The notes: a model not told the origin generated them from the letters alone. 64,000 nt of DNA from Candidatus Thiodiazotropha sp. (GCA_965211775.1 OZ242974.1:4442188-4506187), one strand, 5' to 3'; positions 34,863 to 55,870 are shown, counted from the first letter of the stretch. Program-made: numbers and translations.

Positions 34863-34919
34863 TGCTTCAAGCCAAATTCCTTGTATGAACAGCTGTCATG
34901 AATAGCTGATACATTCAGT

Positions 34920-38371: not shown

Positions 38372-39400
38372 CCTGATTACCCCTAAACCTCAGCCATTCT
38401 CAAGAGGCGATATGGCATAGGTGGAGTGCGAAGAGCGGCAAAAAGCAATCGTTCAATCATGGCGGGTAAATCGAAACGGCGGTTAAACCGATATTCGAAC
38501 TCAGCAAGATAACGCGACACATGTTTATCTCGAATCGCATGAAAAGTACCCAACAGACTGTTTTTGACATTACCCAACATCGTGTTTACCCATTTGAAGC
38601 ACGAATACTGGACACTTTGGCGCCCACCACCCGTCACCATGGGGTTATGATGGCAATCAGCGGTTGTCACGTCACTAAAGCACCAAAGCCCATCGGTAAA
38701 GACTTCGCTGCCAGGCATCAAGCAGGAGCGGGCGTAGCGGGCGATTTCACGTTTGCGGAAGCCCCTTACACGACGCAGTTGAATTTTCATGGGCCTGCCG
38801 TCCCGCGTCGTCTCAACAGCAGCTACGAAAGGGATTTTGTTGCGCGACCCACGACCACGCTTACCGGCTTGCTCGCCTCCGAGATAAGCATCATCCAATT
38901 CGATGCGACCGGCCAGTTTTTTTCCACGCTCACGTTCCATCATCACCTGCATCAACTTATGCTTGAGTCGCCAGGCCGTATTGTAGTTCACCCCGATTTC
39001 GCGGGAAAGTTGCAGCGCCGAGATACTTTTCTTGCGTTGGGTCAACAGATAGATCGCAAGAAACCACGTTCTCAGCGGCAGCTTGGTGCCATGGAAGATG
39101 CTGCCGGCGGTCAGGGAAGTCTGATGATGGCACTTGTGACATTGATATATCTGACGCTTTTTGAGTTCACAGCCTGTTGTGTTGCCGCACTCAGGGCAGA
39201 CATAGCCCGTCGGCCAGCGCAAATCATACAATGCCTGTCGACACTGATCCTCGGTCCCATATTGTTCCAGAAAATCGTGCAAACCAAGACCTTTTTGAAA
39301 TTGAATAGTATTTCTCGGCATGATGAAATCCTCTTTTATTCAGTAGGTTCCATTATGCTTGCACCACAGGCTCAATAGCTGAGCCTCATGAGTAATCAGG
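38372..39400 (-). mobile_element. IS1595-family insertion sequence, copy 3 (1029 bp)
   Basis: It has the same termini as the other copies. The 8-bp TSD TAGGATTT is at 38364..38371 and 39401..39408. Confidence 0.9.
38383..39321 (-). CDS. IS1595-family transposase (intact; one Gly-to-Asp difference from copy 1)
   Basis: The 312-aa protein matches copy 1 except WCFSDVTT in place of WCFSGVTT. Confidence 0.88.
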   Translation of the reverse strand: MPRNTIQFQKGLGLHDFLEQYGTEDQCRQALYDLRWPTGYVCPECGNTTGCELKKRQIYQCHKCHHQTSLTAGSIFHGTKLPLRTWFLAIYLLTQRKKSISALQLSREIGVNYNTAWRLKHKLMQVMMERERGKKLAGRIELDDAYLGGEQAGKRGRGSRNKIPFVAAVETTRDGRPMKIQLRRVRGFRKREIARYARSCLMPGSEVFTDGLWCFSDVTTADCHHNPMVTGGGRQSVQYSCFKWVNTMLGNVKNSLLGTFHAIRDKHVSRYLAEFEYRFNRRFDLPAMIERLLFAALRTPPMPYRLLRMAEV

Positions 39401-39809: not shown

Positions 39810-39986
39810 TTAGTCCCGCTCCTTCTGACTTGACGTGGAATGAGCGCAGGAACCACATCCCGAGCAGTTGTCCGAGGACGCTTCTCTCTCAGGATCGAGT
39901 CTGTTCAACCACAATTGGAATACCACCCAGCCTGCACACAAGGCCACTAATCCCAATATGGCTGACACGTGTATCCACATGGTCAT
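39810..39986 (-). CDS. 58-aa single-TM Cys-rich membrane protein, translationally coupled to rnfA
   Basis: I hand-translated it as MTMWIHVSAILGLVALCAGWVVFQLWLNRLDPEREASSDNCSGCGSCAHSTSSQKERD. Its ATG overlaps the rnfA TGA (ATGA). It is not in the ORF track because it is under 60 aa. Confidence 0.55.
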   Translation of the reverse strand: MTMWIHVSAILGLVALCAGWVVFQLWLNRLDPEREASSDNCSGCGSCAHSTSSQKERD

Positions 39987-40561
39987 GCCGCACTGAACAA
40001 ACCGGCAAATCCCATGAATGCCATGGAGAGTATACCGGCAATAATCAGGTTCATGGCAGTCCCTTTAATCAGTCGAGGCACTTCCGCCAGCTCGGTCTCC
40101 TCCCGCAATCCGGCCATCAGCACCAGAGCCAGGGTAAAACCCAACCCTGCCCCCAAAGCATAGGTCATGCCCTGTATGAATCCATACCCTTTGTTGGTGG
40201 CGAAGATGGCCAGACCGAGAATCGCGCAGTTGGTGGTGATCAGGGGCAGGAATATCCCCAATGCCTTGAACAGGCCCGGACTCAGCTTTTTTATCACCAT
40301 CTCGATGAATTGAACCGTGCTGGCAATCACCACGATAAAACTGATCAACCTTAGATAAGGTGCATAAATCAGAATATAGGTGTTGAGCAGCCAGGCGCAC
40401 AATGCGGTAATCAGCATCACGAATATGGTGGCCAGGCCCAATCGGAAGGCGGTTTCCAATCGCTGCGATACGCCCAGAAAAGGACACAAGCCGAGAAAAT
40501 AGGCCAATACAAAATTATTGATTAGCAGGGCGCTGATGAAAATCCACACAAGTTCGTTCAT
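39983..40561 (-). CDS. rnfA: Rnf electron transport complex subunit A
   Basis: The 192-aa protein has NNFVL..FLGLCPFLGVS and LPLITTNCAILG. Confidence 0.93.
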   Translation of the reverse strand: MNELVWIFISALLINNFVLAYFLGLCPFLGVSQRLETAFRLGLATIFVMLITALCAWLLNTYILIYAPYLRLISFIVVIASTVQFIEMVIKKLSPGLFKALGIFLPLITTNCAILGLAIFATNKGYGFIQGMTYALGAGLGFTLALVLMAGLREETELAEVPRLIKGTAMNLIIAGILSMAFMGFAGLFSAA

Positions 40562-41217
40562 GGTGCTTCAATCTCCATCTGATCCAGTTGTTGCGCCAGT
40601 CTGTCCTTACGCTCTTTCAGCCAGTTGAAGAAAAGCAATAAAAGGCCCAAGGTGATGAAACCGCCGGGCGGCAGGATCATGATCACCCAGGGTTCGAAGT
40701 TCTCACTGAAGAGTTTGAATCCGAACAGCGCTCCCTCTCCCAGTAATTCACGAACCGCACCCAGGGAGAACAGGGCGAACAGAAAACCACTGGCCATGCC
40801 CAGCGCATCCACCAGGGCGAAACGTACCGAGTTGCGAGAAGCAAAGGCCTCCTGCCGTCCCAGGATCATGCAGTTGGCCACGATCAAGGGTATGAAGGCC
40901 CCCAGCTCTTTGTGGACCTTTGGCATCAGCGCCTCAAGGGTAAAGTCGGTGACGGTGACAAAGGTTGCGATGATAATGATATACGTGGAGATACGTACCT
41001 GTTTGGGTATCCAGTTTTTCAGTGATGAAACGAAAAAACTCGAGGCCACCAGCACAAAAAAAGTCGCCCCTCCCATAACCAGTGCATTCATCGCAGAGTT
41101 GGTGACCGCAAGCATGGGACACATACCCAGCACTTGAACAAAAACCGGGTTGTCGCGCCAAAGCCCCTTGATGAACTCCTGATAAGCGTCTTGTTTTTTC
41201 TCAGGCATGCTCTTCAC
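40558..41217 (-). CDS. rnfE: Rnf electron transport complex subunit E
   Basis: The ORF has VQVLGMCPMLAVT and IPLIVANCMILGR. It shares an ATGA overlap with rnfA. Confidence 0.93.
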   Translation of the reverse strand: MKSMPEKKQDAYQEFIKGLWRDNPVFVQVLGMCPMLAVTNSAMNALVMGGATFFVLVASSFFVSSLKNWIPKQVRISTYIIIIATFVTVTDFTLEALMPKVHKELGAFIPLIVANCMILGRQEAFASRNSVRFALVDALGMASGFLFALFSLGAVRELLGEGALFGFKLFSENFEPWVIMILPPGGFITLGLLLLFFNWLKERKDRLAQQLDQMEIEAP

Positions 41218-41235: not shown

Positions 41236-41862
41236 CTAGAAACGCTGTAACCACTGCTGGTTCGCCTGGTTGATAATCCGCACCACCGCCTTGGAGGAGA
41301 TAGTCGCCCCGGTGATGGCGTCAACCTCGTTCGGCGCGGCTTTGGCGCCTCGCTTCACGGTCACGATTTCCGGTTCGACGGATAAGGCATCGAAATTCGA
41401 AACGAACTCGGCATCCTTGTAGATCTTGTCCCCCAGACCCGGCGTTTCCCGGCTCTCGAGTATCTCCATGCCGACCACTTTGCGCTGCTTAGGCTGATAG
41501 CCATAGAGCAATCGAATGGTGTCCTGGAAACCGGGACCTGATCCGGGAATGGCATACCCCACCAAAACACCTTGCGCATCTTGGCCGCCGAAGACGAATT
41601 CCTCACCCTTCCCGACCTCTTCCACCGGCGTCAATCGACCATCCCGGTAGACCAATCGCTGCAGTTGCGTGGAGCCGGGTAACACTTTGAATACCGCCTC
41701 CTGCAAAACCTTCGCCTTATAGGCGGTAATAGTGGGCAGGGTGGCTTCAAATACGGAAACGATGATCAGGCCGGATAGCAGTCCTGCAAAGCCAAGGGTC
41801 GCCACCAAACGGGTGGATCCGGGTTCACTGACCTTTATCTGTTGTCGGCTCTGCTGATTCAA
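41236..41862 (-). CDS. rnfG: Rnf electron transport complex subunit G (FMN-binding)
   Basis: It has an N-terminal TM segment, a C-terminal DAITGATISSKAV flavinylation-type motif, and lies between rnfD and rnfE. Confidence 0.88.
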   Translation of the reverse strand: MNQQSRQQIKVSEPGSTRLVATLGFAGLLSGLIIVSVFEATLPTITAYKAKVLQEAVFKVLPGSTQLQRLVYRDGRLTPVEEVGKGEEFVFGGQDAQGVLVGYAIPGSGPGFQDTIRLLYGYQPKQRKVVGMEILESRETPGLGDKIYKDAEFVSNFDALSVEPEIVTVKRGAKAAPNEVDAITGATISSKAVVRIINQANQQWLQRF

Positions 41863-41869
41863 CTGAATG

Positions 41870-42877
41870 TCACTCCTTGCCGAACACGCGGGGCTGAGTG
41901 TAGCGGTCGATCAGTGGCGTGGCCGCATTCATCAACAAGATGGCGTACATCACCCCCTCGGGAAAACCGCCGAAAAGCCTGATCAGTACAACCAGCAGTC
42001 CGATACCTATGGCGAAGATCCAGGCGCCGCGCGGGGTCAGGGGGGATGTAACCGGATCCGTCGCCATATAGAAAGCCGCCAGCAACAATCCCCCGGATAA
42101 CAGGGTGAATAAAGGATCCGGATACCGCGCTGTATCGATGGCGTAAAGCACACCCGAAAAGAGTGCTGCTGATAGCATGATGCCCACCGGGATACGCCAG
42201 TCGATATCGCGACGCAACAGCAGATAGATCCCTCCCGCCAGCAACAACACCCCACTGGTCTCGCCGATACAGCCCGCGCTATTACCCAACGCCAAATCGA
42301 CCAGCGGGGTCGGCTGCTGCTCGAATTTCATCAATCCCAGGGGGGTGGCTGCGGATACCGCATCGTAGTGGGGTTGCATGAATGGCAGTGCGAAGTTGGA
42401 GGGATACCACAACAGAAAGCCTTCACCGCTTGCCTGGACACTCCAGGTCGTCATGGCATTCGGGAAGGTCGCGAGCAGGAAGGCCCGCCCGACCAGAGCC
42501 GGATTGAACAGGTTGTGTCCCAGCCCGCCCCAGATCACCTTGCCTATACCAATGGAGACTACCCCACCGAGAAAAGCCATCCACAGCGGTAGCGCGGGAG
42601 GCAGGGTCAGGCCCAGCAACAGCCCCGTCAGCACGCCGCTGCCATCCAGCAGCCGCTGCCATCGCTGGTCTCCCGGGGAGAAGAGCCATTCTGCAAGCAC
42701 CGCCCCCAAGACACTCGCCACAACAACCAGAAGCGCTCCCAGACCGAACAGCCAAATTCCAGCCAGAGTGGCTGGCAACAACGCATACAGCAGATCCTTC
42801 ATGGTCTGAGCGGTTGTCATCTCCTGTTTCAGCAGGGGGGATGGCTGCACCAGTAATCTCGGATCCTTGTCGTTCAT
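41870..42877 (-). CDS. rnfD: Rnf electron transport complex subunit D
   Basis: The 335-aa polytopic protein of the NqrB/RnfD type has YMATDPVTSP. Its start overlaps the rnfC stop (TGATG). Confidence 0.92.
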   Translation of the reverse strand: MNDKDPRLLVQPSPLLKQEMTTAQTMKDLLYALLPATLAGIWLFGLGALLVVVASVLGAVLAEWLFSPGDQRWQRLLDGSGVLTGLLLGLTLPPALPLWMAFLGGVVSIGIGKVIWGGLGHNLFNPALVGRAFLLATFPNAMTTWSVQASGEGFLLWYPSNFALPFMQPHYDAVSAATPLGLMKFEQQPTPLVDLALGNSAGCIGETSGVLLLAGGIYLLLRRDIDWRIPVGIMLSAALFSGVLYAIDTARYPDPLFTLLSGGLLLAAFYMATDPVTSPLTPRGAWIFAIGIGLLVVLIRLFGGFPEGVMYAILLMNAATPLIDRYTQPRVFGKE

Positions 42878-44224: not shown

Positions 44225-47200
44225 TTACTGCGCCGGTTCCCTATACCCGGCAAGCTTCAACAGACGCTCATGCACCGCTTTGCGGGTCTCCTGTTGGAGT
44301 TGATCGGTTAGGTCACTGATGCGTTGTTCATACTTGTCCGCCTGCATCTGCAGCGCCTCTTCATGCTCTGCAGCCACGGCTGCTTGCGCCTCCTCGCGCA
44401 CCCGTGCGGTAAACGGCGTCACCAGTCCCGCCAGCTCCTGCAGCATGCGCCATGTCCGTTGCCGCTTCTCGGTGATCTCCAGCAAATGCCTGTCTATACT
44501 GAAACGCCGGACCTCATCCCCCTGCCGGTTCAGTTCAACGTAAACCGACTCCTCTACTCTCTCCCCGGCTGACAGACCGAGATACTCAGCAAGCCTTACA
44601 GCTTCCTCGTCACGATTGAGCGGTGAAAAATAGCCACGGAAGCGTGTCTCGCCGAGTGCCCAATCGACAGGTGTATACACCCCCACCCCGGCATCTCTTA
44701 CCCACGGCTCCGTAAGCGCCGGATTGCCCTGCAGACTGATCCGGGAGCCGAACACGCCTTCCGCTTGCGGATCGTATCGGAACAGGGGGAAGAGTCGGCT
44801 CATCACTGCCGTCCGGGCACGATGCAGTGTCTGATCGGGTGCGAAACCGTGTCGCGAGGGGCTCGGGGCATGCAAGTGCACCAGCGCCGGACCCTTGTGG
44901 GCCAGGGCAGACTGGATGCATGCTGCAAAATGCTCCCTATCACTGATTGAGGTCTGGGCAATAAATGACTCCCGCTGAACGAGCGACAGCAGCGCCAGAT
45001 CGATAGCCACGTCATCCACAGAGGTCAGCGGCGACTCCAGACCCGTCCGTTCTGCAAGCCCCAGATCCAGGTCGGCGAGCAATACTGTTTTTATCGGCAG
45101 CTCACTACCCAAAACCCGGATCAGCTGGCCTAATCCGTGACCTGCCAGCTGACCGCTGTCGCCCACCAGCAGCAGGGTTGGACACAATGCTCTCTCTTCA
45201 TCATCGAGATCGCGCCAGGTCATTGTCTCGAGATCGGACCAGAGGCGCGCCGCATCCGCGGACTGTTCCAATTCCGCACGCGCCTTGCGCATCAGCACGA
45301 AACCTTCCGTCGCCTGCCGCAGTTGGCCCTCCAGCAGACCGGCGGCCAACTGTGCACCGTCACCTGTGGCATCGAGTGTGACGGGTGTTGAGAAAGGGTT
45401 GTGAGGAAAACTACCGGCCCAGCCAACCACTGCACCTGGTGAAAGCACAAGGCTTACCCTGGCGCGCCCCATGTCCTGACGTCCACTGCTGAGTCGCCAG
45501 GCGAGATCGATCAGGTCACGGGCCAGATCCACCAGGCGGCGTAATCGGGCTGCATCCACCTGATTGCTGATGGCATCCTCCGCTTCACCGATCAGGCTGC
45601 TCATGTCAGCCTGCCTCGCGTCGCTCTTTTCCAGGCCGCGTGAGAGTGCATCCAGGTCATCGGCAGGAAGGGCATCCGCCAATAGAGCGCAGATCGATCC
45701 GGTGATTTTTTCCCGGGTTGTCTCGACCTGTTGCAGAAACGACTCAAACCGCGGTGTCTGTTGAGCCTCGACAATGGCAAGTGCCAGGCGCAGCGCCAAT
45801 TTCGCCCCGCTTCCGGGTTCGACGCCATCGCCACCGGCCATCGCCAACCCTGCGCTGTGCGCCAGATGGGCGGCGGCCGCCACACCGACATGCGGATCCT
45901 CTGCCAGCCTGCGAATCGTATTCAGCTCACTGTCGGGCAACCCATGCCACGCCTTCTGAATCCGGCGCGCTCGGGATAGAGATTGGGTACTTTGCGGCAT
46001 GAGCTGCAACGCTTGCTCTCCACAGGCCTGAATACAGATTCCGCAACCCTTGCAACCATCCGGCTCCACGGCGAGCGCCAATAATTCACCACTCCCCCTG
46101 TTTTCTGTGTCAGGTTCAATGAACATGGGATTGGTGACGGCAACCTGCAGACTGCCCATGTCGCTTCGCAACTGCTCTATACCCTGCGCAATCGCTTGTT
46201 TGCGGTCTTGAGGAAAGGGCAGTTTCTCTTTGATCCCGTCATAACTGATGACAAGCATCTCTTCCAGTGTGGAATAGCCCGTCTCCTGCTGTCGACAGAG
46301 TGAAATAATAGCGGCGGCGAGTTTCGAGGCCACCGGTCTGAGCGCCTCGGCGCCACTGCACCGGATTGCGGCATCCATCAGGCGCGTGGGGGAAATCGAG
46401 ACGGCCTTGATGGCAGAATCGGGACAGGCGCACCAGCAGTCGCCGCATCCGGTGCATAACAGCGGATTGAATTGCGGCAGTTGCTTGCGAAACCTGCTCA
46501 GATCACGAAATCCCGCTGACAAGGGTGGTACGGCCCCAACCGCGAGATAGGGATCAGGCGCCAGTTCACCGCTCTTGCCCTGTTTATACAATACCCCGAC
46601 CTGATCCCAGAACCTGGGCAGGCTGTCATAGGCGTCATCCAGGCTTCCCAATCGGCGAACCAGGGCCGGGACTTCATCGCCGACATCCGAAATCGAGCGC
46701 GCCGGAACCAGAGGAAGACGTTTCAGGCTGATCTCCCTGACCTGATCCATGCCCCCTTCGAAATGCTGCAAACAGGCATCGACATCGGCCACTGACTCTC
46801 CCAGCAGCTCTTCACGCAGACTCAGCAGTCTACGCGGTGTCGTCGTCAACCGCTCAGTCTTGATCAATACGGCGGAAACAGCGCCTAACAGATATTCATT
46901 CGGCAGGGATCTGGATTCCTCTGTCGGGGCCACTCTAAACAGGCGTATCCCGCTTTCCCTGATGTGGGCGCGTGCCTCCCTGGGCAGCTGCGTCCAAACC
47001 GATTCATCGGGAAGCGCGCTCTGCACAAGCAGCGTTCCGCCCTTCGCGAGGCCATGGTGCGGCATCAACCGCTGCATGCCGGTGGTCGTCACCAGTATCG
47101 ACAGATCCACTGGGGCGTCGTCACCGGGATCTCTAAGTTCATCGCTGCAGAAGCTGATCCGATCGCTGCAGACACCGCTCCAGGATTTGCTGAACAACGC

Positions 47201-48805
47201 CGGTCGGCTACGCACGCCACCACCGAAGATTCGATGCAGGAAGGCGGCCGTTTCCACCAACAAGCCCTCTCCGGCCGCCCCCGACAATCTGTGCAGCGCC
47301 AGCGTCAGGGCGCCATCAGGCCGCAGGTCGGGTGAGACGGCTTCATCGTAGAGCCCCATCGACTCGAGCCCCGGATAGCTGCGGCGCAAACGGTCCAACA
47401 AGACCTGTCGTTTCGGATAGTCGCTGGATGTTTGAGAAAAGTTGATGCCCAGATAGACCTGCTGCTGTTTGATCCTATCCAGATTTCTGCACAGTGAAGC
47501 CAGATCCGAACCGCGCAGGGGAAGCCCGCCCAACCCATAGATGGCCGAGAGAAACCTGGGGCGCTGTTTATCGCTTATCGATGGATAGCCCGGATGCGCT
47601 TCGAGCCCGAACCGATGGTTTTCCGCGGCATGATCAAACGCACCACGCACCTCCCTCATCAATGGCGGGTCCGTTGCCAGCGGGACATCCATGCGCTCCA
47701 GTACGCAAACGCTGGCGCCGCCTGCGAGACAGCGTGCTATCTCTTTTGCGGGGAAGGGACGCAGACAGCGCACACCCAACACGCCAACCTTCAAACGGTC
47801 GCTGGCACGCAGATAGTCCGCCACTGCCTCGAGGACCTCTATTGCCGCACCCTGCGCCACCAGAATCAGTTTGGCGTCATCAACCCGGTAAGCTGAAAGT
47901 GATCGATATCGCCGACCCGTCTGTTCGGAAAAAAGATCAAAGGCATCATCAAGGCAATCCGACAGCGCATCGTCAAAGAAGACACGCCCCGACGCTTTGG
48001 CCTGCCCCCACACATCCGGGGCCTGAAGCCCACCCAGCATGACAGGCCGGTCAGGGTTATGCCAACGGGTTACCCGTCGGCGCGACTCACCCAGCAACAA
48101 CTGCTGCGCCGCGGTCGGGGATGCAATCAGATCATCCGGCCGCCCCAGGTAGCGCTCCACCAAGCCCGGAGGCGGCAGGCTGACCTCCTGCAGTGCCAGC
48201 GCTGTCTGTTCACCATCCATACCGACCAGGCCAGGCATCAGTGACTGCTCTGCTGCGCGTCGCACGATCAGGGAGAAATCCACCGCCTCCTGGACATTCG
48301 CTGCAATCAACTGGAAACAGCCGGAATCAGCTGCCAGATGAAAGGCTTCATGGCCACTGCCCAGCGCCGGTGCATGACCGGCAAGACTGCGTGCAGTGAG
48401 GTGTATGACCAACGGCAGCCTGAGACCGGCGGCGATGGTCAACAGGTCACTGCTGCGGGCCAGATCGGGCCCGGATAAAAAGCCGGTTGCCCGTACGCCG
48501 CTCATCGACATACCGATGCCGGCAGCCAGCACCCCACGCGCCCCTTCCGTTGACTGCATGCTGACAGGTGAACCGAGGAAATTCAGCCGTTGCTGCTGCA
48601 GTTCACTGCGCCAGGCCAGGTCAGCTGTCAGTGCCGGGTAGGATGCCCCCAGACCGGCCCCTTCACTGATTCCCGCTTCCACTACAGACACGGCCGTATT
48701 ACCGTCCAACAGTGTGCTGTTGCCCGCATAAGGACCCTGCGTGCGCGGGGGTGTCCCAAGCAGGCGTTTCAATAACCGTAAAGCCGAATTAACCAGTTCG
48801 GGCAT
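44225..48805 (-). CDS. very large pyruvate:ferredoxin-oxidoreductase (PFOR/NifJ)-like protein with degenerate TPP-binding motif, encoded inside the rnf operon
   Basis: It has a PFOR domain-I-like N-terminus (GNTAVSVVEAG...STEGARGVLAAGIGMSMSG...LPLVIHLTARSL), two Cys clusters (CTGCGDCWCACP, CKGCGICIQAC), and a domain-VI-like region LLLVGDSGQLAGHGLGQLIRVLGSELPIKTVLLADLD. It also carries the PFOR hallmark SRLFPLFRYDPQAEG and a coiled-coil C-terminus. The start is taken at 48805 (MPELVNS); the ORF is open to 48934. Confidence 0.75.
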   Translation of the reverse strand: MPELVNSALRLLKRLLGTPPRTQGPYAGNSTLLDGNTAVSVVEAGISEGAGLGASYPALTADLAWRSELQQQRLNFLGSPVSMQSTEGARGVLAAGIGMSMSGVRATGFLSGPDLARSSDLLTIAAGLRLPLVIHLTARSLAGHAPALGSGHEAFHLAADSGCFQLIAANVQEAVDFSLIVRRAAEQSLMPGLVGMDGEQTALALQEVSLPPPGLVERYLGRPDDLIASPTAAQQLLLGESRRRVTRWHNPDRPVMLGGLQAPDVWGQAKASGRVFFDDALSDCLDDAFDLFSEQTGRRYRSLSAYRVDDAKLILVAQGAAIEVLEAVADYLRASDRLKVGVLGVRCLRPFPAKEIARCLAGGASVCVLERMDVPLATDPPLMREVRGAFDHAAENHRFGLEAHPGYPSISDKQRPRFLSAIYGLGGLPLRGSDLASLCRNLDRIKQQQVYLGINFSQTSSDYPKRQVLLDRLRRSYPGLESMGLYDEAVSPDLRPDGALTLALHRLSGAAGEGLLVETAAFLHRIFGGGVRSRPALFSKSWSGVCSDRISFCSDELRDPGDDAPVDLSILVTTTGMQRLMPHHGLAKGGTLLVQSALPDESVWTQLPREARAHIRESGIRLFRVAPTEESRSLPNEYLLGAVSAVLIKTERLTTTPRRLLSLREELLGESVADVDACLQHFEGGMDQVREISLKRLPLVPARSISDVGDEVPALVRRLGSLDDAYDSLPRFWDQVGVLYKQGKSGELAPDPYLAVGAVPPLSAGFRDLSRFRKQLPQFNPLLCTGCGDCWCACPDSAIKAVSISPTRLMDAAIRCSGAEALRPVASKLAAAIISLCRQQETGYSTLEEMLVISYDGIKEKLPFPQDRKQAIAQGIEQLRSDMGSLQVAVTNPMFIEPDTENRGSGELLALAVEPDGCKGCGICIQACGEQALQLMPQSTQSLSRARRIQKAWHGLPDSELNTIRRLAEDPHVGVAAAAHLAHSAGLAMAGGDGVEPGSGAKLALRLALAIVEAQQTPRFESFLQQVETTREKITGSICALLADALPADDLDALSRGLEKSDARQADMSSLIGEAEDAISNQVDAARLRRLVDLARDLIDLAWRLSSGRQDMGRARVSLVLSPGAVVGWAGSFPHNPFSTPVTLDATGDGAQLAAGLLEGQLRQATEGFVLMRKARAELEQSADAARLWSDLETMTWRDLDDEERALCPTLLLVGDSGQLAGHGLGQLIRVLGSELPIKTVLLADLDLGLAERTGLESPLTSVDDVAIDLALLSLVQRESFIAQTSISDREHFAACIQSALAHKGPALVHLHAPSPSRHGFAPDQTLHRARTAVMSRLFPLFRYDPQAEGVFGSRISLQGNPALTEPWVRDAGVGVYTPVDWALGETRFRGYFSPLNRDEEAVRLAEYLGLSAGERVEESVYVELNRQGDEVRRFSIDRHLLEITEKRQRTWRMLQELAGLVTPFTARVREEAQAAVAAEHEEALQMQADKYEQRISDLTDQLQQETRKAVHERLLKLAGYREPAQ

Positions 48806-49652
48806 AACGGCTCTCACTCTGAATCCGTGAACGGGCCCGGTTTGCGAACTGGCCCCCTTCCAACCATTGAATGGCGCCGGTAGGACAGCGGTAGGTCGCC
48901 GCAGGTCGGGCCGGTCCACCCCCTGAGTAGTCAACGACCGGCAGGTTATCCTTCATGTGGATCAGACCGGGCGCCGCATCCGCCACGCAGCGCCCACAGG
49001 CATCGCACGCCGTGGTGCAGAGCGCCACCGCCATATCACCGGCAAGGGGCGCCATGCATTGTACGAAGAGATGCTGGCTCAACGGCACCAGTTCGAACAG
49101 ATCCCTTGGACAGACATCCACACAATCACCACAGGCGGTACACTGCTCGATATCGACCACAGGCAACCCGTTTGAATTGGTAGTGATCGCATTGAAGCTG
49201 CAGGCTCGCTGACAGTCACCGAGGCCGAAACACCCCCAGGAGCAACCTTTGCCGCCGCCGGAAACCACGGATGCCGCAAGACAGCTTTCGAATCCCCTGT
49301 ATTCGGCAATCTGGTATGCCTGGCCTTTCCCCCCGGCACAATGCAGTCGCGCCACCCGCTTCTCTTGCTGCCCCGGATCCACATCCAGCAGTTCAGCCAC
49401 GGCATCGATCGTCTCCTGGCTTGCTACAGTGCACTTGCTCGGTGATGTCGTGAGTTGCACCAGCTGCTCGGCAAATGCATGGCACCCCGGTTGCCCACAG
49501 GCGCCGCAATTTGAACCGGGCAGCAGATCCTCGGTCTCTTCGATCCGGGGATCCTCCTGCACTTTCAGAAATCTGTAGGCCACCGCCAGGATAACCGCAA
49601 AAACCAGACCGATGCCGGTCATGATGGCGGGTGCGATAACAAAGCTGTTCAT
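48789..49652 (-). CDS. rnfB: Rnf electron transport complex subunit B (polyferredoxin type)
   Basis: It has an N-terminal TM segment, a CGACGQPGC cluster, and several additional Cys clusters (CTACGDCVDVCP and others). Confidence 0.88.
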   Translation of the reverse strand: MNSFVIAPAIMTGIGLVFAVILAVAYRFLKVQEDPRIEETEDLLPGSNCGACGQPGCHAFAEQLVQLTTSPSKCTVASQETIDAVAELLDVDPGQQEKRVARLHCAGGKGQAYQIAEYRGFESCLAASVVSGGGKGCSWGCFGLGDCQRACSFNAITTNSNGLPVVDIEQCTACGDCVDVCPRDLFELVPLSQHLFVQCMAPLAGDMAVALCTTACDACGRCVADAAPGLIHMKDNLPVVDYSGGGPARPAATYRCPTGAIQWLEGGQFANRARSRIQSESRYARTG

Positions 49653-52171
49653 TGGTTGAACGGCGCCGCTCGTTCAATCAATGAGTCCAGATCGGGCTCA
49701 TCGTGATTGAGGGGCTTCCCAGGATGAATGCATTTCGCCGGACAGAGTTCAGCCGCCTGCACCAGCTGAGCATAAGTGGCATTGCCGAGATCCCCGAGCA
49801 TGGCCTGCTTCTCGTCGTTATAGATGAAGAGCTGCGGATTGATCGGCAGGCAGTCATTGCAACTGGTGCAGAGAGGGGTATCGATCCAGGGGTCGTCAAA
49901 ACTTAGGCTCTCTTGTTCTTCTTCATCAGGCGGCTCGCTCTCCTCGGCTTCCTCGCTCTGTTGTTCCGGCATCACTTCATCACTGCCCATGGCGACTGGC
50001 CCGGAGGGCATGTCGCCGCGACGCACCCCCCCCTCGACATCCAGGCCAAGCAGCACATCCGTGAGTCGCTGCATGGCCTCGCCGGCGGCTTCGTTTCTCA
50101 CCCGCTCCACCTCTTCGGCATGTGCAGCCTGTATGCGAACCAGCTCGTTGCTGGCCAGCTCACGCTCCTCCGCACGGGTTTTTTCCACCGCCATATCGAC
50201 ATAGCGGTTGCGCACGCCCGCCATCTCCTGCAGGGTGTGCCAATAGTTGAGGCGGTCACGGCAAGCCAGCGCGAGCTCTCTCGAGATCACCACGCGGTGC
50301 AGCATGGCGTTGCCGTCGATGGCCCAGACAAACGGCACCCGTCTATAGGCCTCCTCCGGGCTCATGGCCAGATAGTCCTGTATCGATAACAGCCCGTCTG
50401 AATCGCAGCCGGCCGGGATCAGTCGAAAGTGGTCTCGTAGACGCTCGATCAGCAGGGCGTAATCGGCAAAGGTGAATGCCAGTTCTGTGGTGACACTATT
50501 GCCGTTGTCATCCAGGTACCGAAACGGGTGCAAGGGCCAGTCCCGATCAGCCTGTGGATTACCGCTGAAATCCATCCGCACCGCTGCCGAATCGCCCGCC
50601 TCCGGGTTGATGCGGAAAAAGGGGTGGGCCCGGCTTTCGATGGCGGCGCCAGCCACCAACCAGGCATTCAGCGGAAGCAGTCTGCCGGGTGGACGCATGC
50701 CCGTATTGATGACATGCAGACTGGTGCGGGTGGCGTCCAAAGCCATCAGGTAGCACTTCAACAGGTGCTGATGCCGGGCAGCGGATGACTGGTCGACAAC
50801 GGCTTGACGATGACTGATGCCCAGATAACTCAATTCGGTCCGGTAACTCTTGAGCGGATCGCCATCGAGAGCGGCACCGGGATCGGCATGCGCCAACACC
50901 CGGATCAGAATCTGTACAGGCCGCCCCGAGCTGAGCAGCCGGGAAAAGGTACGCAATCCCTCGCCGGCCACCTGATCGGCCGATCCCAACGCGATCACCG
51001 AGGGCACCATTCGCAGCTCTTCTTGCGAAAAGGCCTCCCAGCTGAAATTGGCGAACCAGGGATCGTGAATCTCCGGGTTGTAGATGGCGTCGATCTCCAG
51101 CTGTGCGATACGCACCGCACTGTAGATCGAGGTCAGCTTCTCAGCCTCGCGATCGAATATCTCCATCGCTTTGGCGCAGGGATCATGATCGGTGATCTCC
51201 TGGCAGAAATCGACCTCCTGAAGCCAGGGATCGGTAAGCGTGCCAATGTGCAGAAAACGGACCAGCACCGGGTCGGGATGCCAACCTTGCATGATCTCCA
51301 GCGCATGTTCGATACGCTCGCGCCGCTCCTCTGAAATAGACCGGGTGCCCCGGGAATGATCCATCACCGCGGAGAGTATCACGGGGTCGAAGCGTTCACC
51401 GCCCAGGCCGACACTGTCTCGGGCCATCTTGGGTTCGATCGACTCATCGGATTTGATCCATTCGACTTCGAGGAGCTCCTTCAGGCCGCGTATGGAGGCA
51501 TCGATTCGCTCCTGAAAACGTTGTTGCATGTGGGTAAACTGACTGCGTACCGCATGAATCAGAAGATGGAGTGCGGGATAGCGGCCATAACCCAGCAGCT
51601 GGGCGCCTTCCGGCACAGACTGCAGCAACAGGTTCAGGTCATCTTCCAGTCTCTTTCTCTCCTGTTCATCGAGACCTAGATGCGTCTGTAGCGCGATGCA
51701 GGACTCCGCCAATGTCGCTCCGGCATCCACCGGGCCTTCGCGTTGCTGCAACGACTTGCGAATATGATGCTCCAGCCATGGCAGATGGTGTTTCAGAATC
51801 CTTGCCTTCCCCTCCTCCGGTGCATTGGCGGCCACGGCCTCCTGAAGCCATTGCACAAGGGGACAGGCAAGTTCTTCGGCTGTCTGATAGGTCTCTTCGG
51901 TATTGGGAGGAAAAAGGAACAGGGGGTAGTCATAGCGTAGCCTGGACGTATCGCGGTAGGGATCGAGCAGGGCCGGGAGATAGTCGTCGCCAATCGATTC
52001 CAACTGTGCCTTGGCCGCAGGATCACCCAGGTGGAAATGGCGCAGAAGAAACATCAACTCACGGGTTGCACGGGCATCCTTGACTGCCGTCGGCAGGGAT
52101 GGCACACGCCCCGATTCATTGCTGGGCAACTGGGTCGATTGCTCCTCTGCGGCCTTTTGTATCGTTGTCAT
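49649..52171 (-). CDS. 840-aa uncharacterised protein: PFOR domain-VI-like region, coiled coil, acidic linker and C-terminal ferredoxin-like domain
   Basis: It is a paralog of the C-terminal half of the 44225..48805 protein (VIALGSADQVAGEGLRTFSRLLSSGRPVQILI; SRAHPFFRINPEAGD; YWHTLQEMAG). The C-terminus is PLCTSCNDCLPINPQLF...AELCPAKCIHPG. Its stop overlaps the rnfB ATG (ATGA). Confidence 0.7.
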   Translation of the reverse strand: MTTIQKAAEEQSTQLPSNESGRVPSLPTAVKDARATRELMFLLRHFHLGDPAAKAQLESIGDDYLPALLDPYRDTSRLRYDYPLFLFPPNTEETYQTAEELACPLVQWLQEAVAANAPEEGKARILKHHLPWLEHHIRKSLQQREGPVDAGATLAESCIALQTHLGLDEQERKRLEDDLNLLLQSVPEGAQLLGYGRYPALHLLIHAVRSQFTHMQQRFQERIDASIRGLKELLEVEWIKSDESIEPKMARDSVGLGGERFDPVILSAVMDHSRGTRSISEERRERIEHALEIMQGWHPDPVLVRFLHIGTLTDPWLQEVDFCQEITDHDPCAKAMEIFDREAEKLTSIYSAVRIAQLEIDAIYNPEIHDPWFANFSWEAFSQEELRMVPSVIALGSADQVAGEGLRTFSRLLSSGRPVQILIRVLAHADPGAALDGDPLKSYRTELSYLGISHRQAVVDQSSAARHQHLLKCYLMALDATRTSLHVINTGMRPPGRLLPLNAWLVAGAAIESRAHPFFRINPEAGDSAAVRMDFSGNPQADRDWPLHPFRYLDDNGNSVTTELAFTFADYALLIERLRDHFRLIPAGCDSDGLLSIQDYLAMSPEEAYRRVPFVWAIDGNAMLHRVVISRELALACRDRLNYWHTLQEMAGVRNRYVDMAVEKTRAEERELASNELVRIQAAHAEEVERVRNEAAGEAMQRLTDVLLGLDVEGGVRRGDMPSGPVAMGSDEVMPEQQSEEAEESEPPDEEEQESLSFDDPWIDTPLCTSCNDCLPINPQLFIYNDEKQAMLGDLGNATYAQLVQAAELCPAKCIHPGKPLNHDEPDLDSLIERAAPFNQ

Positions 52172-52225: not shown

Positions 52226-53179
52226 TCAGATAGTGATTCGGTCCAACACTGCGTTGAAGCCCTCCAGCCTTTTCTCAGGCGTCATCTCCACACCCTGACT
52301 CGACAGATCCTCGTAACACTGGGCATCCGGGTTATGGTAAAGCAGTCCCAACGGCAGTCTCGCGGTGTCTGCTGCGAGCTGGAAGGCCCGGGCCAGATCG
52401 GAGGGATCGTGTTCCGTCCGATTGGGGAATTGACGGCTGACACTCTTGTCCACTGGAATTCCCCGCTGATGCTGCAACAGCAGGAACCGGTCCGGGTTCT
52501 GCTGCAGCTCCTTTGAAAAACTGTCCGCATAGACCGGGCAACGCTGAATAATGCGGACAAACCCAGTTCCCTTGTGTCGGTATGCGGCTTTTAATGTTTC
52601 GTAGAGTAAAGGGGGATTCCAGTCAGCCACCTGTGCCACGAAAGAGACGTTGGTAACACCCAGCGTTACCGTCAACGGATTATGCGGCTCGAGTATGGCG
52701 CCGAAAGGATGGGTGTTGGTCTTGAAGCCATGGGGGCTGGTGGGAGATGTCTGGGCCTTGGTCAAGCCGTAGATGGCATTGTCAAACACCATCAGAGTCA
52801 TATCCATGTTGTAGCGCAGAGCATGGATCCAATGAGCGGTGCCGATAGAAAAACAATCACCGTCTCCCGTCGCCACCCACACATCCAGTTCAGGCCGTCT
52901 GGCCTTGATGCCGCAGGCAACGGGCAGCGCACGTCCGTGCAGGCCGTGAAAACCGAACGTGCCGAGGTAATGGGGCATACGGCTGGAACAGCCGATACCG
53001 GAAACACATACGGACATCTCCGGCCGCTGCTGCTCGTCGCGCAAGACCTTTTGTGCGGCTGTCAGCACCGCATGATCACCGCAGCCGGGACACCATCTGG
53101 CCTCGCCGCCCGCATAGTCGCCCATGGTGAAATAGCGCTCAAAGACTTCGAGTGACCAGTCAGCTTTCAATCCGAACAT
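52226..53179 (-). CDS. korB: 2-oxoglutarate/2-oxoacid:ferredoxin oxidoreductase beta subunit (TPP-binding)
   Basis: It has WCPGCGDH and the TPP motif GDGDCFSIG...MVFDNAIYGLTKAQ. Confidence 0.9.
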   Translation of the reverse strand: MFGLKADWSLEVFERYFTMGDYAGGEARWCPGCGDHAVLTAAQKVLRDEQQRPEMSVCVSGIGCSSRMPHYLGTFGFHGLHGRALPVACGIKARRPELDVWVATGDGDCFSIGTAHWIHALRYNMDMTLMVFDNAIYGLTKAQTSPTSPHGFKTNTHPFGAILEPHNPLTVTLGVTNVSFVAQVADWNPPLLYETLKAAYRHKGTGFVRIIQRCPVYADSFSKELQQNPDRFLLLQHQRGIPVDKSVSRQFPNRTEHDPSDLARAFQLAADTARLPLGLLYHNPDAQCYEDLSSQGVEMTPEKRLEGFNAVLDRITI

Positions 53180-55080
53180 CAGCCCTCTCCTTGCAATGCT
53201 TCGAGTCTTTTTACGAGTTCATTCTTGATCATTCCCGGCTGCAGCGGGTGTCCATATACCACCGACCAGCAATCGATATCGATCAGGGTATGGGCGCGTA
53301 ACAGCAGGGCAAGCTGGGCATAACGGCGTGTCTCGTCGGTAATCAGGGGTGAACCGGGATCATCACTGTAGTTGATCTCCACCGTCATCACTTTGCGAAA
53401 ACCCTTGAATATCTCTTTCAGCCCGGGCTCCATGGGTAAAATAAAGCGAAGATGCAGGGAAGAGACTCGATGGCCGTCAGCACGCGCACGATCCACCGCC
53501 TCCTCAATGGCGCCAAGGGTTGAGCCCCACCCGACCACCAGCAGATCGCCGGAATCATCGCCGTGCACGACGGGGGGTTTCAGGGTACTGGCCAGGGCGG
53601 CAAATTTACGACTGCGCATATTCGCGCCGTGCTGGTTTGAATCGGAATCGTAGGCCACCTTGCTGTGGTTGGTGTGGGCAAGGCCGGTGAGGATGTACTG
53701 ACCACCCTGCATGCCCGGTACGGGTCGGGGGGAGAGCCCACTCTCCGAATCCCAATTGTAGGGAGGAATATGCTCATCCCAGTCCGATTGGTCGATGGGC
53801 GGCGCCATCCAGTCCAGGCTTGGCTCCGGTCTCTGGTAGGGTTGAACCCCGGTTGCCAGATTCGCGTCTGTCAGCAGTATCACCGGAGTTCGGAACGCTT
53901 CGGCAAGCCGTCGCGACATCACCACAAAATGCAGGCACTCCTCAATCGTGGCTGCGGCGATCACCACCTTGGGTGCATCGCCAGGCTCCCCGAAAAGCGC
54001 AGCCAGCAAGTCACCCTGCTCTACCTTGGTGGGCAGGCCGGTGGATGGGCCGCCCCGCTGCACGACACACACCACCAGGGGGAGTTCCGCCATCACCGCC
54101 AATGCCAGCATCTCTGTCTTAAGGGCCAGTCCCGGTCCTGAGGTGATGGTACAGGCGGTCTTTCCGGCAAACGAGGATCCAATGGCGAAACCGGCGGCGG
54201 CTATCTCATCCTCGGCCTGATGCACAAAGCCCCCAACCTCATGGTAGACATCCGCCAGGTAGTGGGATGCGGAGGTCGCCGGCGTGATCGGGTACATGGA
54301 AACCAGTTCCATACCGGATGCCATCACCCCGAGTCCCAATGCTGTATTCCCATTGGTGACGATATAACGCTTCCCCTCCCTGTCCTCTGCCGGCTGAGCT
54401 GGAACCTGGTAACTCAGACCCAGTCTCTCTGCGGCAAACCGGTAACCGGCGTCGAACAAGCGGTGATTCATGTCGATCGCCTTGTCGCCCTTGCGTTTGA
54501 AGGTGGTGGCGATCTCGCCTTTGGCAAGTTCCACATCCCGCGAATAGATACGGCACAACATCCCCAGCACGAACATATTCTTACCACGCCGGGGATTCGG
54601 CGTGATCTCCAGACAGGCCGTTTCAATCGGCAATTCGTGAACGATCAGGCCGTTTCTACGAAACTCGGCAACCGCCTTCGCATACTGCTCACGGATTTCA
54701 GGCACGCTGTCGTCGCGCCATTTATCCTCCAGCAGCACTTGGGTGCCCTCTTTGTATGCGCCGTTGACGATGCGTGAATAGAGAACCTGTTCGTTGAAGG
54801 CGACCACAATATCGGCTTCGTCGCCCATATTGGTAACCGCATGTGACGCCAGACGAATCCGGATACCGCTGGCGCCGGCCGGTGAGCGTGCGGGGGATTG
54901 AATCTCGGCGGGAATGATCTCCACCGTCCAGACACCATTGCCCATTCGGGCGGATACCGTGCCAAAGGTCTGGCCGGCTTTTTGTGCGCCTTCACCGGAG
55001 TCGCTGACGATCTCCACGATGTGCTCACGGGTTAGCGTCAACCTCGGAGCAAGCTCCTCGGCAGTTGTTGCATCCACCAC
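53179..55080 (-). CDS. korA: 2-oxoglutarate/2-oxoacid:ferredoxin oxidoreductase alpha subunit (gamma-alpha fusion type)
   Basis: The 633-aa protein has an N-terminal gamma-like domain (GEGAQKAGQ) followed by an alpha domain (MYPITPATS, QAEDEIAA). It overlaps korB by 1 nt. Confidence 0.9.
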   Translation of the reverse strand: MVDATTAEELAPRLTLTREHIVEIVSDSGEGAQKAGQTFGTVSARMGNGVWTVEIIPAEIQSPARSPAGASGIRIRLASHAVTNMGDEADIVVAFNEQVLYSRIVNGAYKEGTQVLLEDKWRDDSVPEIREQYAKAVAEFRRNGLIVHELPIETACLEITPNPRRGKNMFVLGMLCRIYSRDVELAKGEIATTFKRKGDKAIDMNHRLFDAGYRFAAERLGLSYQVPAQPAEDREGKRYIVTNGNTALGLGVMASGMELVSMYPITPATSASHYLADVYHEVGGFVHQAEDEIAAAGFAIGSSFAGKTACTITSGPGLALKTEMLALAVMAELPLVVCVVQRGGPSTGLPTKVEQGDLLAALFGEPGDAPKVVIAAATIEECLHFVVMSRRLAEAFRTPVILLTDANLATGVQPYQRPEPSLDWMAPPIDQSDWDEHIPPYNWDSESGLSPRPVPGMQGGQYILTGLAHTNHSKVAYDSDSNQHGANMRSRKFAALASTLKPPVVHGDDSGDLLVVGWGSTLGAIEEAVDRARADGHRVSSLHLRFILPMEPGLKEIFKGFRKVMTVEINYSDDPGSPLITDETRRYAQLALLLRAHTLIDIDCWSVVYGHPLQPGMIKNELVKRLEALQGEG

Positions 55081-55330: not shown

Positions 55331-55870
55331 TCACCACATCAAATCGTCAGGCACGATATAGTCGGCATAGGGATCGTCGCCATCATCCTGCTGTTCACGA
55401 TCATTGCGTACAACGATACAATCGCGGTTTCTCATACTGATTTTGTCTGCCACTGCGGTAGGGATGACGTCATAGCGATCATCTATCTTGACAATCGCCA
55501 GCCGCCCGCCGATCAGTTGGCCATGAATCTCGTCTGTGATAAGAATCCGCCGCACCTTGGCTTCGTCATTGAAATGGTAAACCACCTCGCCCTCCTCCAA
55601 CGAAAGACGATTCATCTCAATCAACTGCCTGATCTGGGCGGCAATCGCTTTTTGCTTCGCCTGCTCATTCTTTTTCTGATTCAGCGCACGATCCCGTTCG
55701 ACATCCTCGGCTTTCGCCTGTTTTGCCCAACGCACGGCTTGGTCTTCCGTTTTCTGCTTGCGATGCCGCTGCTCTTTCTCCCTGCGTTGTTTTGCCTTCT
55801 TCGCCTTGTTGACTTTGTTCTTGTCAGTTAAGCCGGCCTTGAGCAGCTGATCCTGTAGTGAGTTAGCCAA
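55331..55870 (-). CDS. DUF2058-family (YaiL-like) protein
   Basis: It has the N-terminus SLQDQLLKAGL.DK, a lysine-rich coiled region, and an acidic C-terminus ending DDLMW. Confidence 0.7.
   Translation of the reverse strand: MANSLQDQLLKAGLTDKNKVNKAKKAKQRREKEQRHRKQKTEDQAVRWAKQAKAEDVERDRALNQKKNEQAKQKAIAAQIRQLIEMNRLSLEEGEVVYHFNDEAKVRRILITDEIHGQLIGGRLAIVKIDDRYDVIPTAVADKISMRNRDCIVVRNDREQQDDGDDPYADYIVPDDLMW

Follow-up and report, generated by a model that had tools for sequence, protein, structure and literature searches.

A Probable Pseudoenzyme Derived from Pyruvate:Ferredoxin Oxidoreductase and Encoded between rnfB and rnfC in Candidatus Thiodiazotropha and Other Bacteria

Introduction

The DNA considered here, a stretch of 64,000 nucleotides from Candidatus Thiodiazotropha sp. 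(GCA_965211775.1 OZ242974.1:4442188-4506187; hereafter the window), carries on its minus strand, between rnfB and rnfC, a gene for a protein with the whole domain order of a pyruvate:ferredoxin oxidoreductase (PFOR), I-II-III-IV-V-VI. This pseudo-PFOR protein is called PFL in this study. As judged from aligned sequences, the only cofactor sites that PFL keeps are the two ferredoxin-type [4Fe-4S] sites of domain V, while the sites for thiamine pyrophosphate (TPP), Mg and the proximal cluster have been lost from the family as a whole, which is a family of pseudo-PFORs. The loss of catalysis is well supported by the conservation pattern of the family, and we have high confidence that PFL is not a TPP-dependent PFOR. 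Its fixed place in an operon that encodes both the Rnf complex and a 2-oxoacid oxidoreductase, KorAB, suggests that it now wires or scaffolds electron transfer. It is reasonably likely that PFL is a non-catalytic PFOR paralogue, or pseudoenzyme, which serves as an iron-sulfur electron-transfer or docking subunit coupling Rnf with KorAB.

The fold and the individual parts of this system are already known. What is new is that a large and widely mis-annotated family is a dead PFOR, that a second pseudo-subunit accompanies it, and that both are fixed in an Rnf-KorAB module. Relatives of PFL are named in databases as "pyruvate ferredoxin oxidoreductase," "pyruvate-ferredoxin/flavodoxin oxidoreductase," or "4Fe-4S binding protein," and in the literature searched, the gene has been taken for that of a working PFOR when the metabolism of chemosynthetic symbionts and sulfur bacteria was reconstructed. 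In the Solemya velum symbiont, for example, a PFOR gene between rnfB2 and rnfC2 was assumed to be active, and pyruvate was proposed as the electron donor to Rnf (Dmytrenko et al., PMC4287430). If PFL is dead, any pyruvate synthase capacity, or any role of pyruvate as donor to Rnf, that was assigned on the basis of this gene is wrong. A search for a described "PFOR-like" partner of Rnf gave only that paper and PMC11636981, and no report of the loss of the catalytic sites was found in the literature searched, the coverage of which was incomplete.

Loss of the Catalytic Sites

The 2-oxoacid:ferredoxin oxidoreductases (OFORs), the superfamily to which PFOR belongs, are defined by several features: a GDG motif and Asn/Thr, which bind Mg2+ and the diphosphate of TPP; a Glu hydrogen-bonded to N1′ of TPP; the Thr of a YPITP motif and an Arg, both for the substrate carboxylate; and the CxGC of the proximal cluster (Yan et al., 2016, PMC5020499). 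These sites were mapped by means of a hidden Markov model (HMM) alignment onto 119 members of the PFL family of at least 1450 amino acids, and were counted again in 100 full-length representatives of 50%-identity clusters taken from an exhaustive search, referred to below as the distant representatives. Residues of PFL are numbered from M1 at position 48805, and those of PFOR follow the Desulfovibrio africanus enzyme.

The canonical IGGDGWAYDIG...LDTxxYSNTGGQ is aligned to LLLVGDSGQLAGHGLG...LLADLDLGLAERTG in PFL, where the window sequence reads G-D-S-G at the GDG site. A reading made earlier from the sequence alone had already described this motif as degraded, and the degradation proves to be family-wide, with a correction of one residue in the register: by HMMER, the canonical Asp of GDG falls on S1217, next to the position chosen by eye. 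The Asp is conserved in neither register. Its column holds Ser in 49, Asp in 26 and Ala in 24 of the 119 relatives, with other residues in the rest, and it is also variable among the 100 distant representatives. As for the Mg/substrate positions, the column of Thr991 is occupied by Asp or Glu in the 119 relatives and that of Asn996 by Gly in 107 of them. The YPITP motif has become GASYP in the window, and the column of its Thr31 is Phe or Tyr in 107/119. The Glu facing N1′, Glu64, is Ala89 in the window protein; of the 119, 89 have Pro in this column and 25 have Ala, and not one of the 100 distant representatives has Glu there. The substrate Arg114 persists in close relatives: it corresponds to Arg139 of PFL and is Arg in 113/119 of them, but in only 49/100 distant ones.

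The decay is wider than the sequence-only reading had seen, since the activating Glu and the proximal cluster are gone as well. At the site of Cys1071, the fourth ligand of the proximal cluster, the window protein has HAPSPSRHG against the canonical YAPCxxHG, and the column is Ser in 116/119 relatives; among the distant representatives it is Ser in 83/100 and Cys in 3/100. The region due to hold the other three cysteines contains no invariant Cys, none being present between residues 929 and 1207 in the 31 family sequences from which the family profile was built. Within it lies a conserved GGDGxExGSGE (991-1000), compared with the canonical GACSGCGET, and three distant representatives read GCGE there; it looks like a relic of the proximal-cluster motif. 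Intermediates with a proximal cluster were sought among the distant representatives, which yielded just isolated single cysteines and never a set. An hhalign comparison of the KorB family with the C-terminal half of PFL, intended to locate the CxxC region, gave a weak match of 74 columns (probability 1.2%), which was not used.

Alignment to characterised PFORs therefore shows the TPP, Mg and proximal-cluster ligands lost and the domain order kept, where an ordinary nifJ product would have all of the TPP and Mg ligands within its canonical order. An ordinary nifJ was ruled out by the score against the corresponding equivalog model, TIGR02176, which at 153.2 bits does not reach the cutoff of 911.35, together with the lost catalytic motifs. 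Decay specific to this genome, a sequencing artefact and a pseudogene were also ruled out, as no frameshifts are present and the same substitutions recur in full-length relatives, of which 119 are close and 100 distant.

Fold and Architecture

The gene was confirmed as an open reading frame (ORF). In its maximal form it has 1569 codons and begins with TTG, which produces an overlap of 146 nt with the upstream gene. The true start is most likely the ATG at 48805, M44 of that frame: a GAGAG-type ribosome-binding site stands ahead of it, it falls within the final 17 nt of rnfB, and the resulting protein of 1526 amino acids has the same length as the 93%-identical orthologue of Ca. Thiodiazotropha endolucinida. 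The stop codon is TAA (44227-44225), and rnfC probably starts at ATG 44217, 10 nt after it. The parts of the gene are as follows, with residue numbers of PFL in brackets.

44225-48805 (-): PFL gene (1526 amino acids plus stop); the maximal ORF extends to 48934
48716-48805 (-): family-specific N-terminal helix (1-30); M1, R10, L11 and R14 nearly invariant
47606-48715 (-): PFOR domains I-II, that is, PYR domain and domain II (31-400)
46496-47605 (-): diverged domain III/IV region (401-770)
46586-46630 (-): YDSLPRFWDQVGVLY (726-740), invariant and family-specific, just ahead of the first cluster motif
45926-46495 (-): ferredoxin-type domain V; both CxxCxxCxxxC motifs complete (771-960)
46424-46456 (-): first cluster motif of domain V (C784-C794)
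46103-46390 (-): predicted helical insert between the two cluster motifs (about 806-901)
46022-46054 (-): second cluster motif of domain V (C918-C928)
44606-45925 (-): pseudo-domain VI, with the fold of a TPP PP-domain (961-1400)
Within pseudo-domain VI: relic GGDGVEPGSGAK (991-1002), at the place of the proximal-cluster CxxC of PFOR
45047-45166 (-): degenerate GDG/Mg loop of pseudo-domain VI (1214-1253)
44846-44872 (-): HAPSPSRHG (1312-1320), Ser for the fourth proximal-cluster Cys
44228-44605 (-): C-terminal extension, common to X840 (1401-1526)
Within the C-terminal extension: invariant W-R-x-L-Q-E-L-A-G-x-x-T-P-F motif (1452-1465)
44252-44416 (-): predicted 55-residue helix (1464-1518; AlphaFold2, AF2)

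That the N-terminus is domain I of PFOR, as had been read by eye, is borne out by Pfam (POR_N, 3.5e-21; PFOR_II, 1.2e-12; Fer4 is matched as well) and by the D. africanus enzyme, 1b0p, which matches residues 76-438 at 5e-32. The segment previously likened to YWPLFRYDP is indeed its counterpart, with SRLFPLFRYDP of PFL aligned to SGYWPLFRYDP of 1b0p and FPLFRYDP conserved. A profile of the 31 members matches the Moorella PFOR 6cin at 8.9e-56 and the D. africanus PFOR at 8e-48. These matches consist of four collinear segments, the same four as in E. coli YdbK, the canonical reference: domains I-II; a stretch from the end of domain III through domain IV to the first cluster motif; the second cluster motif; and the second half of domain VI. 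The AF2 model of residues 700-1526 (predicted local distance difference test, pLDDT, 69.5; predicted template modelling score, pTM, 0.61) matches 6cin by Foldseek with an E-value of 2.9e-7 and a probability of 1.0 over about 690 columns, as well as the beta subunits of oxalate oxidoreductase and of an archaeal PFOR. Taken together, the profile segments and the structural matches indicate that the PFOR architecture, including the fold of the TPP PP-domain, is kept in PFL. By Pfam, collinear segments and Foldseek, PFL thus belongs to the OFOR superfamily, with domain III alignable only in part. It matches no other enzyme family in Pfam, NCBIfam or the PDB.

The domain III/IV region is diverged. 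Pfam POR (PF01558, domain III) and EKR (domain IV) give no match to PFL, whereas the YdbK control scores 126 and 86 bits; in the domain III region just the C-terminal half aligns to PFOR, and the lowest conservation of the whole protein, at about 576-724, lies within the domain III/IV region. Domains I and VI are among the better conserved parts. The missing match to Pfam TPP_enzyme_C is not diagnostic, since YdbK likewise has none at E<=1e-5. PFL is 352 amino acids longer than YdbK (1526 against 1174), within the excess of 300-400 estimated earlier, and it does end in a long helix, for which the coiled coil suggested at the time is plausible. The N-terminal helix and YDSLPRFWDQVGVLY, neither of which has a counterpart in PFOR, are candidate docking surfaces.

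The Two Ferredoxin-Type Clusters

The eight cysteines of domain V, C784/787/790/794 and C918/921/924/928, are invariant in the 31 family sequences and 91-100% conserved in the 100 distant representatives. On this pattern, both sites would be expected to be occupied by clusters. The two motifs are as unusually far apart as had been noticed: 124 residues separate C794 from C918, against 46 in YdbK. With the TPP and Mg sites lost and two ferredoxin-type clusters alone conserved, the earlier proposal of a purely electron-transferring or scaffolding PFOR derivative is supported by the alignments.

The Operon in the Window

The sequence-only reading did not include the context of the gene, namely its position in rnfB-PFL-rnfC, the intact KorAB and the protein X840. 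Ten genes on the minus strand are arranged in the order korA-korB-X840-rnfB-PFL-rnfCDGEA, and PFL is co-translated between rnfB and rnfC, as indicated by overlapping stop and start codons. The other members are listed below.

53179-55080 (-): korA, OFOR alpha subunit, domains III-I-II; YPITP, Glu and Arg intact
52226-53179 (-): korB, OFOR beta subunit; CPGCG...GCSS...C proximal-cluster motif and GDG...DN TPP/Mg motif intact
49649-52171 (-): X840, 840 amino acids, annotated "ferredoxin"
48789-49652 (-): rnfB, long type; stop codon overlaps PFL start
42877-44217/44253 (-): rnfC
41870-42877 (-): rnfD
41236-41862 (-): rnfG
40558-41217 (-): rnfE
39983-40561 (-): rnfA

RnfB combines an N-terminal transmembrane helix with an FeS domain and a 2x[4Fe-4S] domain, and has in addition a Cys-rich C-terminus. 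KorA and KorB together form a two-subunit OFOR (TIGR03710, 489 bits), and 18 orthologues of KorB share its CPGCG, GCSS, fourth Cys and TGDGD...FDN without exception; the score of KorB against TIGR02177 is below the cutoff (230 against 262), and the substrate of KorAB may be 2-oxoglutarate, pyruvate or another compound. With all catalytic motifs kept in the same operon, KorAB serves as an internal control for the losses seen in PFL, and its intactness means that a genuine 2-oxoacid enzyme, although without domain V, is already available from the operon. Dimeric korAB is common in gammaproteobacterial autotrophs (Rubin-Blum et al., 2019, PMC6315080). A scan of the operon for promoters and terminators gave counts not above the shuffled expectation.

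Around the operon, a DUF2058 protein is encoded directly upstream of korA (55331-55870, -) and a CHAD-domain protein on the opposite strand (56903-57829, +). Two transposase genes of the IS1595 family (ISXO2-like) are present, one just downstream of rnfA (38383-39321, -) and the other at 28657-29559 (+), the latter within a stretch of low GC content (about 43-49% at 26-32 kb, against 55-60% elsewhere). Three regions on the minus strand, 18234-27659, 31417-33397 and 33447-37295, encode two giant RTX/BapA-like repeat proteins (1183 and 1932 amino acids) and two smaller RTX proteins, together with a type I secretion pair consisting of an HlyD-family protein and a C39-peptidase ABC transporter.

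X840, a Second PFOR Relic

X840 has no match in NCBIfam. By BLASTP its residues 375-653 are related to PFL 1194-1461 (E 2e-16), and by hhalign its residues 188-711 are related to PFL 992-1519 (probability 99.85%, E 1e-30), a span that takes in the whole pseudo-domain VI, an FRxxP segment, the WRxLQE(L/M)AG motif and the long helix. The best matches of its AF2 model (pLDDT 61.5) are OFOR beta subunits. Neither a GDG motif nor proximal-cluster cysteines were found in X840. An acidic linker of low confidence leads to a C-terminal single-[4Fe-4S] ferredoxin (764-818) resembling D. africanus ferredoxin I (1e-5). X840 is thus a second PFOR-derived pseudo-domain VI, with a tethered single-cluster ferredoxin. 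Its first 190 residues or so have no known match.

This protein has a counterpart in the literature. When sulfide is limiting, Endoriftia shows a joint decrease of KorA(3), KorB(3) and a "PFOR-like ferredoxin" encoded by the gene that follows (Mitchell et al., 2024, PMC11636981). By locus-tag order this "PFOR-like ferredoxin" is the orthologue of X840 and not of PFL.

Distribution of the Module

Each GTDB species was represented by one genome in a scan for relatives of PFL, which were found in 445 genomes. The best 79 loci, with three from protein look-ups, were examined by tblastn with the ten window proteins, and the neighbour counts have as denominators the loci with enough flank. Upstream of PFL, rnfB is directly adjacent in 66/72 loci, X840 is present in 53/62 and korAB in 47/56; downstream, rnfC is present in 51/66 and the full rnfCDGEA in 43/57. 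The ten-gene module occurs in dozens of genomes, mostly of sulfur-oxidising Gammaproteobacteria, and the carriers include Thiodiazotropha, Sedimenticolaceae, Chromatiaceae, Beggiatoaceae, Thiosymbion, Woeseiaceae, Thiohalomonadaceae, Achromatium and tubeworm symbionts. Metagenome-assembled genomes (MAGs) of Phycisphaerales (loci L042 and L052), Acidobacteriota (L043) and Eisenbacteria (L051 and L070) contain the complete module with its genes in the same order, and its retention in such distant phyla argues that the module is transferred and functions as one unit; to judge from these genomes, it suggests horizontal transfer of the whole unit. The identities of the copies in these phyla are like those of distant gammaproteobacterial copies.

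Two loci have two copies of PFL. In one (L033, 19441-24514), a second rnfB-PFL pair follows rnfA, and in an Eisenbacteria MAG (L070; 4114-8718 and 10001-14479) the order is X840-PFL-rnfB-PFL.

In the 34 loci with all ten genes, the mean identity to the window is 45.5% for PFL, 52.7% for X840 and 63-81% for the others. PFL is the least conserved and fastest-evolving protein of the module, yet it is full length in well over 100 clusters; the rates of PFL and X840 fit relaxed constraint on former enzymes that are maintained at full length, and for PFL they are what a less demanding role would lead one to expect. A search with the profile of the PFL C-terminus gave 1158 clusters (50% identity) at E<=1e-30, a number that may include X840-type paralogues, which share this region.

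Possible Roles of PFL

How could a PFOR without a catalytic centre serve the operon? Starting from synteny and an analogy with the docking of ferredoxin to PFOR, we lean slightly towards the view that PFL wires Rnf to KorAB. Domain V of PFL would exchange electrons with RnfB, a membrane-anchored polyferredoxin, as an active PFOR does with ferredoxin, and PFL and X840 would couple the Rnf complex to the catalytically intact KorAB. OFORs of the (alpha-beta)2 type, in which domain V is missing, accommodate an external ferredoxin in a pocket (PMC5020499); KorAB, being of this type, could offer such a pocket in place of domain V. The dimer interface of every OFOR is built from domains I, II and VI (PMC5020499), and those retained in PFL may serve assembly together with the C-terminal helix shared with X840. 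In such an arrangement the module could drive reductive carboxylation by NADH and the ion-motive force, or run in reverse, without free ferredoxin.

A bolder and rather doubtful extension is that the ten genes specify a hard-wired, membrane-bound Rnf-OFOR supercomplex, in which the single-cluster KorAB would be joined to RnfB by PFL and X840, possibly paired via the C-terminal helices common to both, with no soluble low-potential ferredoxin. If so, NADH and the ion-motive force would drive 2-oxoacid synthesis for CO2 fixation or anaplerosis, and the reverse, oxidation of a 2-oxoacid with the pumping of ions, would also be possible. Sulfur oxidisers living microaerobically and chemosynthetic symbionts would be well served by such a complex.

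The names given in databases and the proposal for the Solemya velum symbiont (PMC4287430) amount to a different reading, that PFL is a working, nifJ-like pyruvate:ferredoxin/flavodoxin oxidoreductase feeding electrons of pyruvate into Rnf. It agrees with the overall PFOR fold and the retained substrate Arg. It is nevertheless highly improbable: across the family, other residues stand in place of the GDG/Mg ligands, the N1′-Glu, the Thr of YPITP and the cysteines of the proximal cluster; no route leads from a TPP site to domain V without the proximal cluster; domain III, the coenzyme A-binding domain of OFORs, holds the least conserved stretch and escapes detection by Pfam; the TIGR02176 score is 153 against a required 911; and the operon itself supplies an intact OFOR in KorAB.

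The same synteny and the same signs of lost catalysis would fit a purely structural or regulatory pseudoenzyme, either a scaffold for assembly or a sensor of redox state or metabolites that gates RnfB/Rnf or KorAB, with clusters of structural or sensory function rather than as part of the main electron path. Such a role would account for a big conserved scaffold (domains I, II and VI) with cofactors in domain V alone, and for a C-terminal helix and WRxLQELAG motif, common to X840, that resemble a protein-protein interaction element; binding of a small molecule by Arg139 and the remodelled pocket is still conceivable. We regard it as unlikely, since the eight cluster cysteines are the most strictly conserved residues of the family, very distant members included, and since RnfB, X840 and KorB all bear clusters, which makes a relay the simplest reading; moreover, the presence of the substrate Arg in only 49 of the 100 distant representatives argues against a conserved ligand pocket. 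Less likely still is a neo-functionalised enzyme, in which the remodelled cleft of domains I and VI (GGDG 991-994, the acids of LADLDLGL, His/Arg) would hold another cofactor or substrate for a non-TPP chemistry coupled to the two clusters. Conserved motifs without PFOR counterpart, YDSLPRFWDQ, GGDGxExGSGE and LxDLDLGL with D/E at 1245/1247, speak for this idea, as does the relatively good conservation of domains I and VI. Against it, the acids at 1245/1247 drop to about 40-56% in the distant representatives, the cleft is far from domain V and has no proximal cluster, PFL evolves faster than all other proteins of the module, and the database searches matched no other enzyme family.

Several points weigh against the view of PFL as a non-catalytic electron-transfer or docking subunit between Rnf and KorAB. 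Four loci, L039, L041 (Escarpia symbiont), L045 (Lamellibrachia symbiont) and L075, have korA-korB-X840-rnfB-PFL with no rnfCDGEA within 10 kb downstream, an arrangement seen in tubeworm symbionts and some Sedimenticolaceae, and in Beggiatoaceae and Thiosymbion only rnfB and PFL are adjacent. From these variant loci, the most constant partner of PFL is rnfB; its obligate partner may be RnfB rather than the whole Rnf complex, and an RnfB-like membrane polyferredoxin may act with PFL without an adjacent Rnf core. The contacts of PFL with RnfB, X840 and KorAB, like the direction of electron flow, are what we infer from synteny and the docking analogy, and the AF2 models are of moderate confidence (PFL and X840 alike). 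With regard to catalysis, Arg139 is retained in close relatives, and the conserved acids left in the pseudo-site (LADLDLGL and GGDG) could form another ligand or metal site. The CxxC region of the proximal cluster is unalignable by HMM, so that GSGE was equated with GCGE by eye, backed only by the three Cys-bearing representatives. Glyoxylate carboligase, furthermore, is active without the N1′-Glu, and the loss of this residue alone is therefore no proof of inactivity; the conclusion that catalysis is lost draws on all the lost features combined.

If PFL does act as such a subunit, it would be a clear case in which an enzyme has become a subunit for electron transfer or scaffolding. The module would point to a protein-wired link between the ion-motive force or NADH and a CO2-fixing 2-oxoacid synthase, which bears on the supply of low-potential electrons in aerobic and microaerobic autotrophs. 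As cultured Chromatiaceae (Thiorhodococcus and Thiocystis) carry the gene, its role is directly testable.

Comparison with Known Systems

PFL is closest to the homodimeric PFORs (1b0p, 6cin and NifJ/YdbK), with which it shares a single polypeptide, the domain order, domains I-II (about 1e-48 by profile), the two motifs of domain V, the PP-domain fold and PLFRYDP. Unlike them, it lacks the GDG/Mg motif, the N1′-Glu, the YPITP Thr and the cysteines of the proximal [4Fe-4S] cluster, and its domains III and IV are too diverged for Pfam. It has in addition a 78-residue extra helical insert between the cluster motifs; its domain VI begins with about 85 additional residues, its C-terminus is extended by about 125 residues with the long helix, and its gene lies inside an rnf operon.

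The two-subunit OFORs (Sulfolobus StOFOR and KorAB/OGOR) are of the same superfamily, and their beta-subunit fold is common to X840 and domain VI of PFL. In its cofactor sites PFL is their inverse: the KorAB type has TPP and one cluster without domain V, whereas PFL has domain V without TPP or the proximal cluster. With the delta subunit PorD/KorD, intramolecular ferredoxin domains and the ferredoxins that dock to RnfB, PFL shares the 2x[4Fe-4S] sites, which are its only conserved cofactor sites, and RnfB, the ferredoxin-interacting subunit of Rnf, is its likely partner, as gene association suggests. In contrast to PorD/KorD and soluble ferredoxins, the ferredoxin module of PFL is split by a helical insert and embedded in a dead scaffold of about 170 kDa.

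A further likeness is found in complex I, an ion-translocating redox complex in which the molybdopterin-enzyme-like domain of NuoG and the [NiFe]-hydrogenase-derived NuoD are enzyme relics without their cofactors, with clusters and/or the scaffold kept. The likeness is one of analogy and not of homology, the folds and complexes being different: in each case an enzyme that has lost its catalytic cofactor is found with, or in PFL encoded beside, an ion-translocating redox complex.

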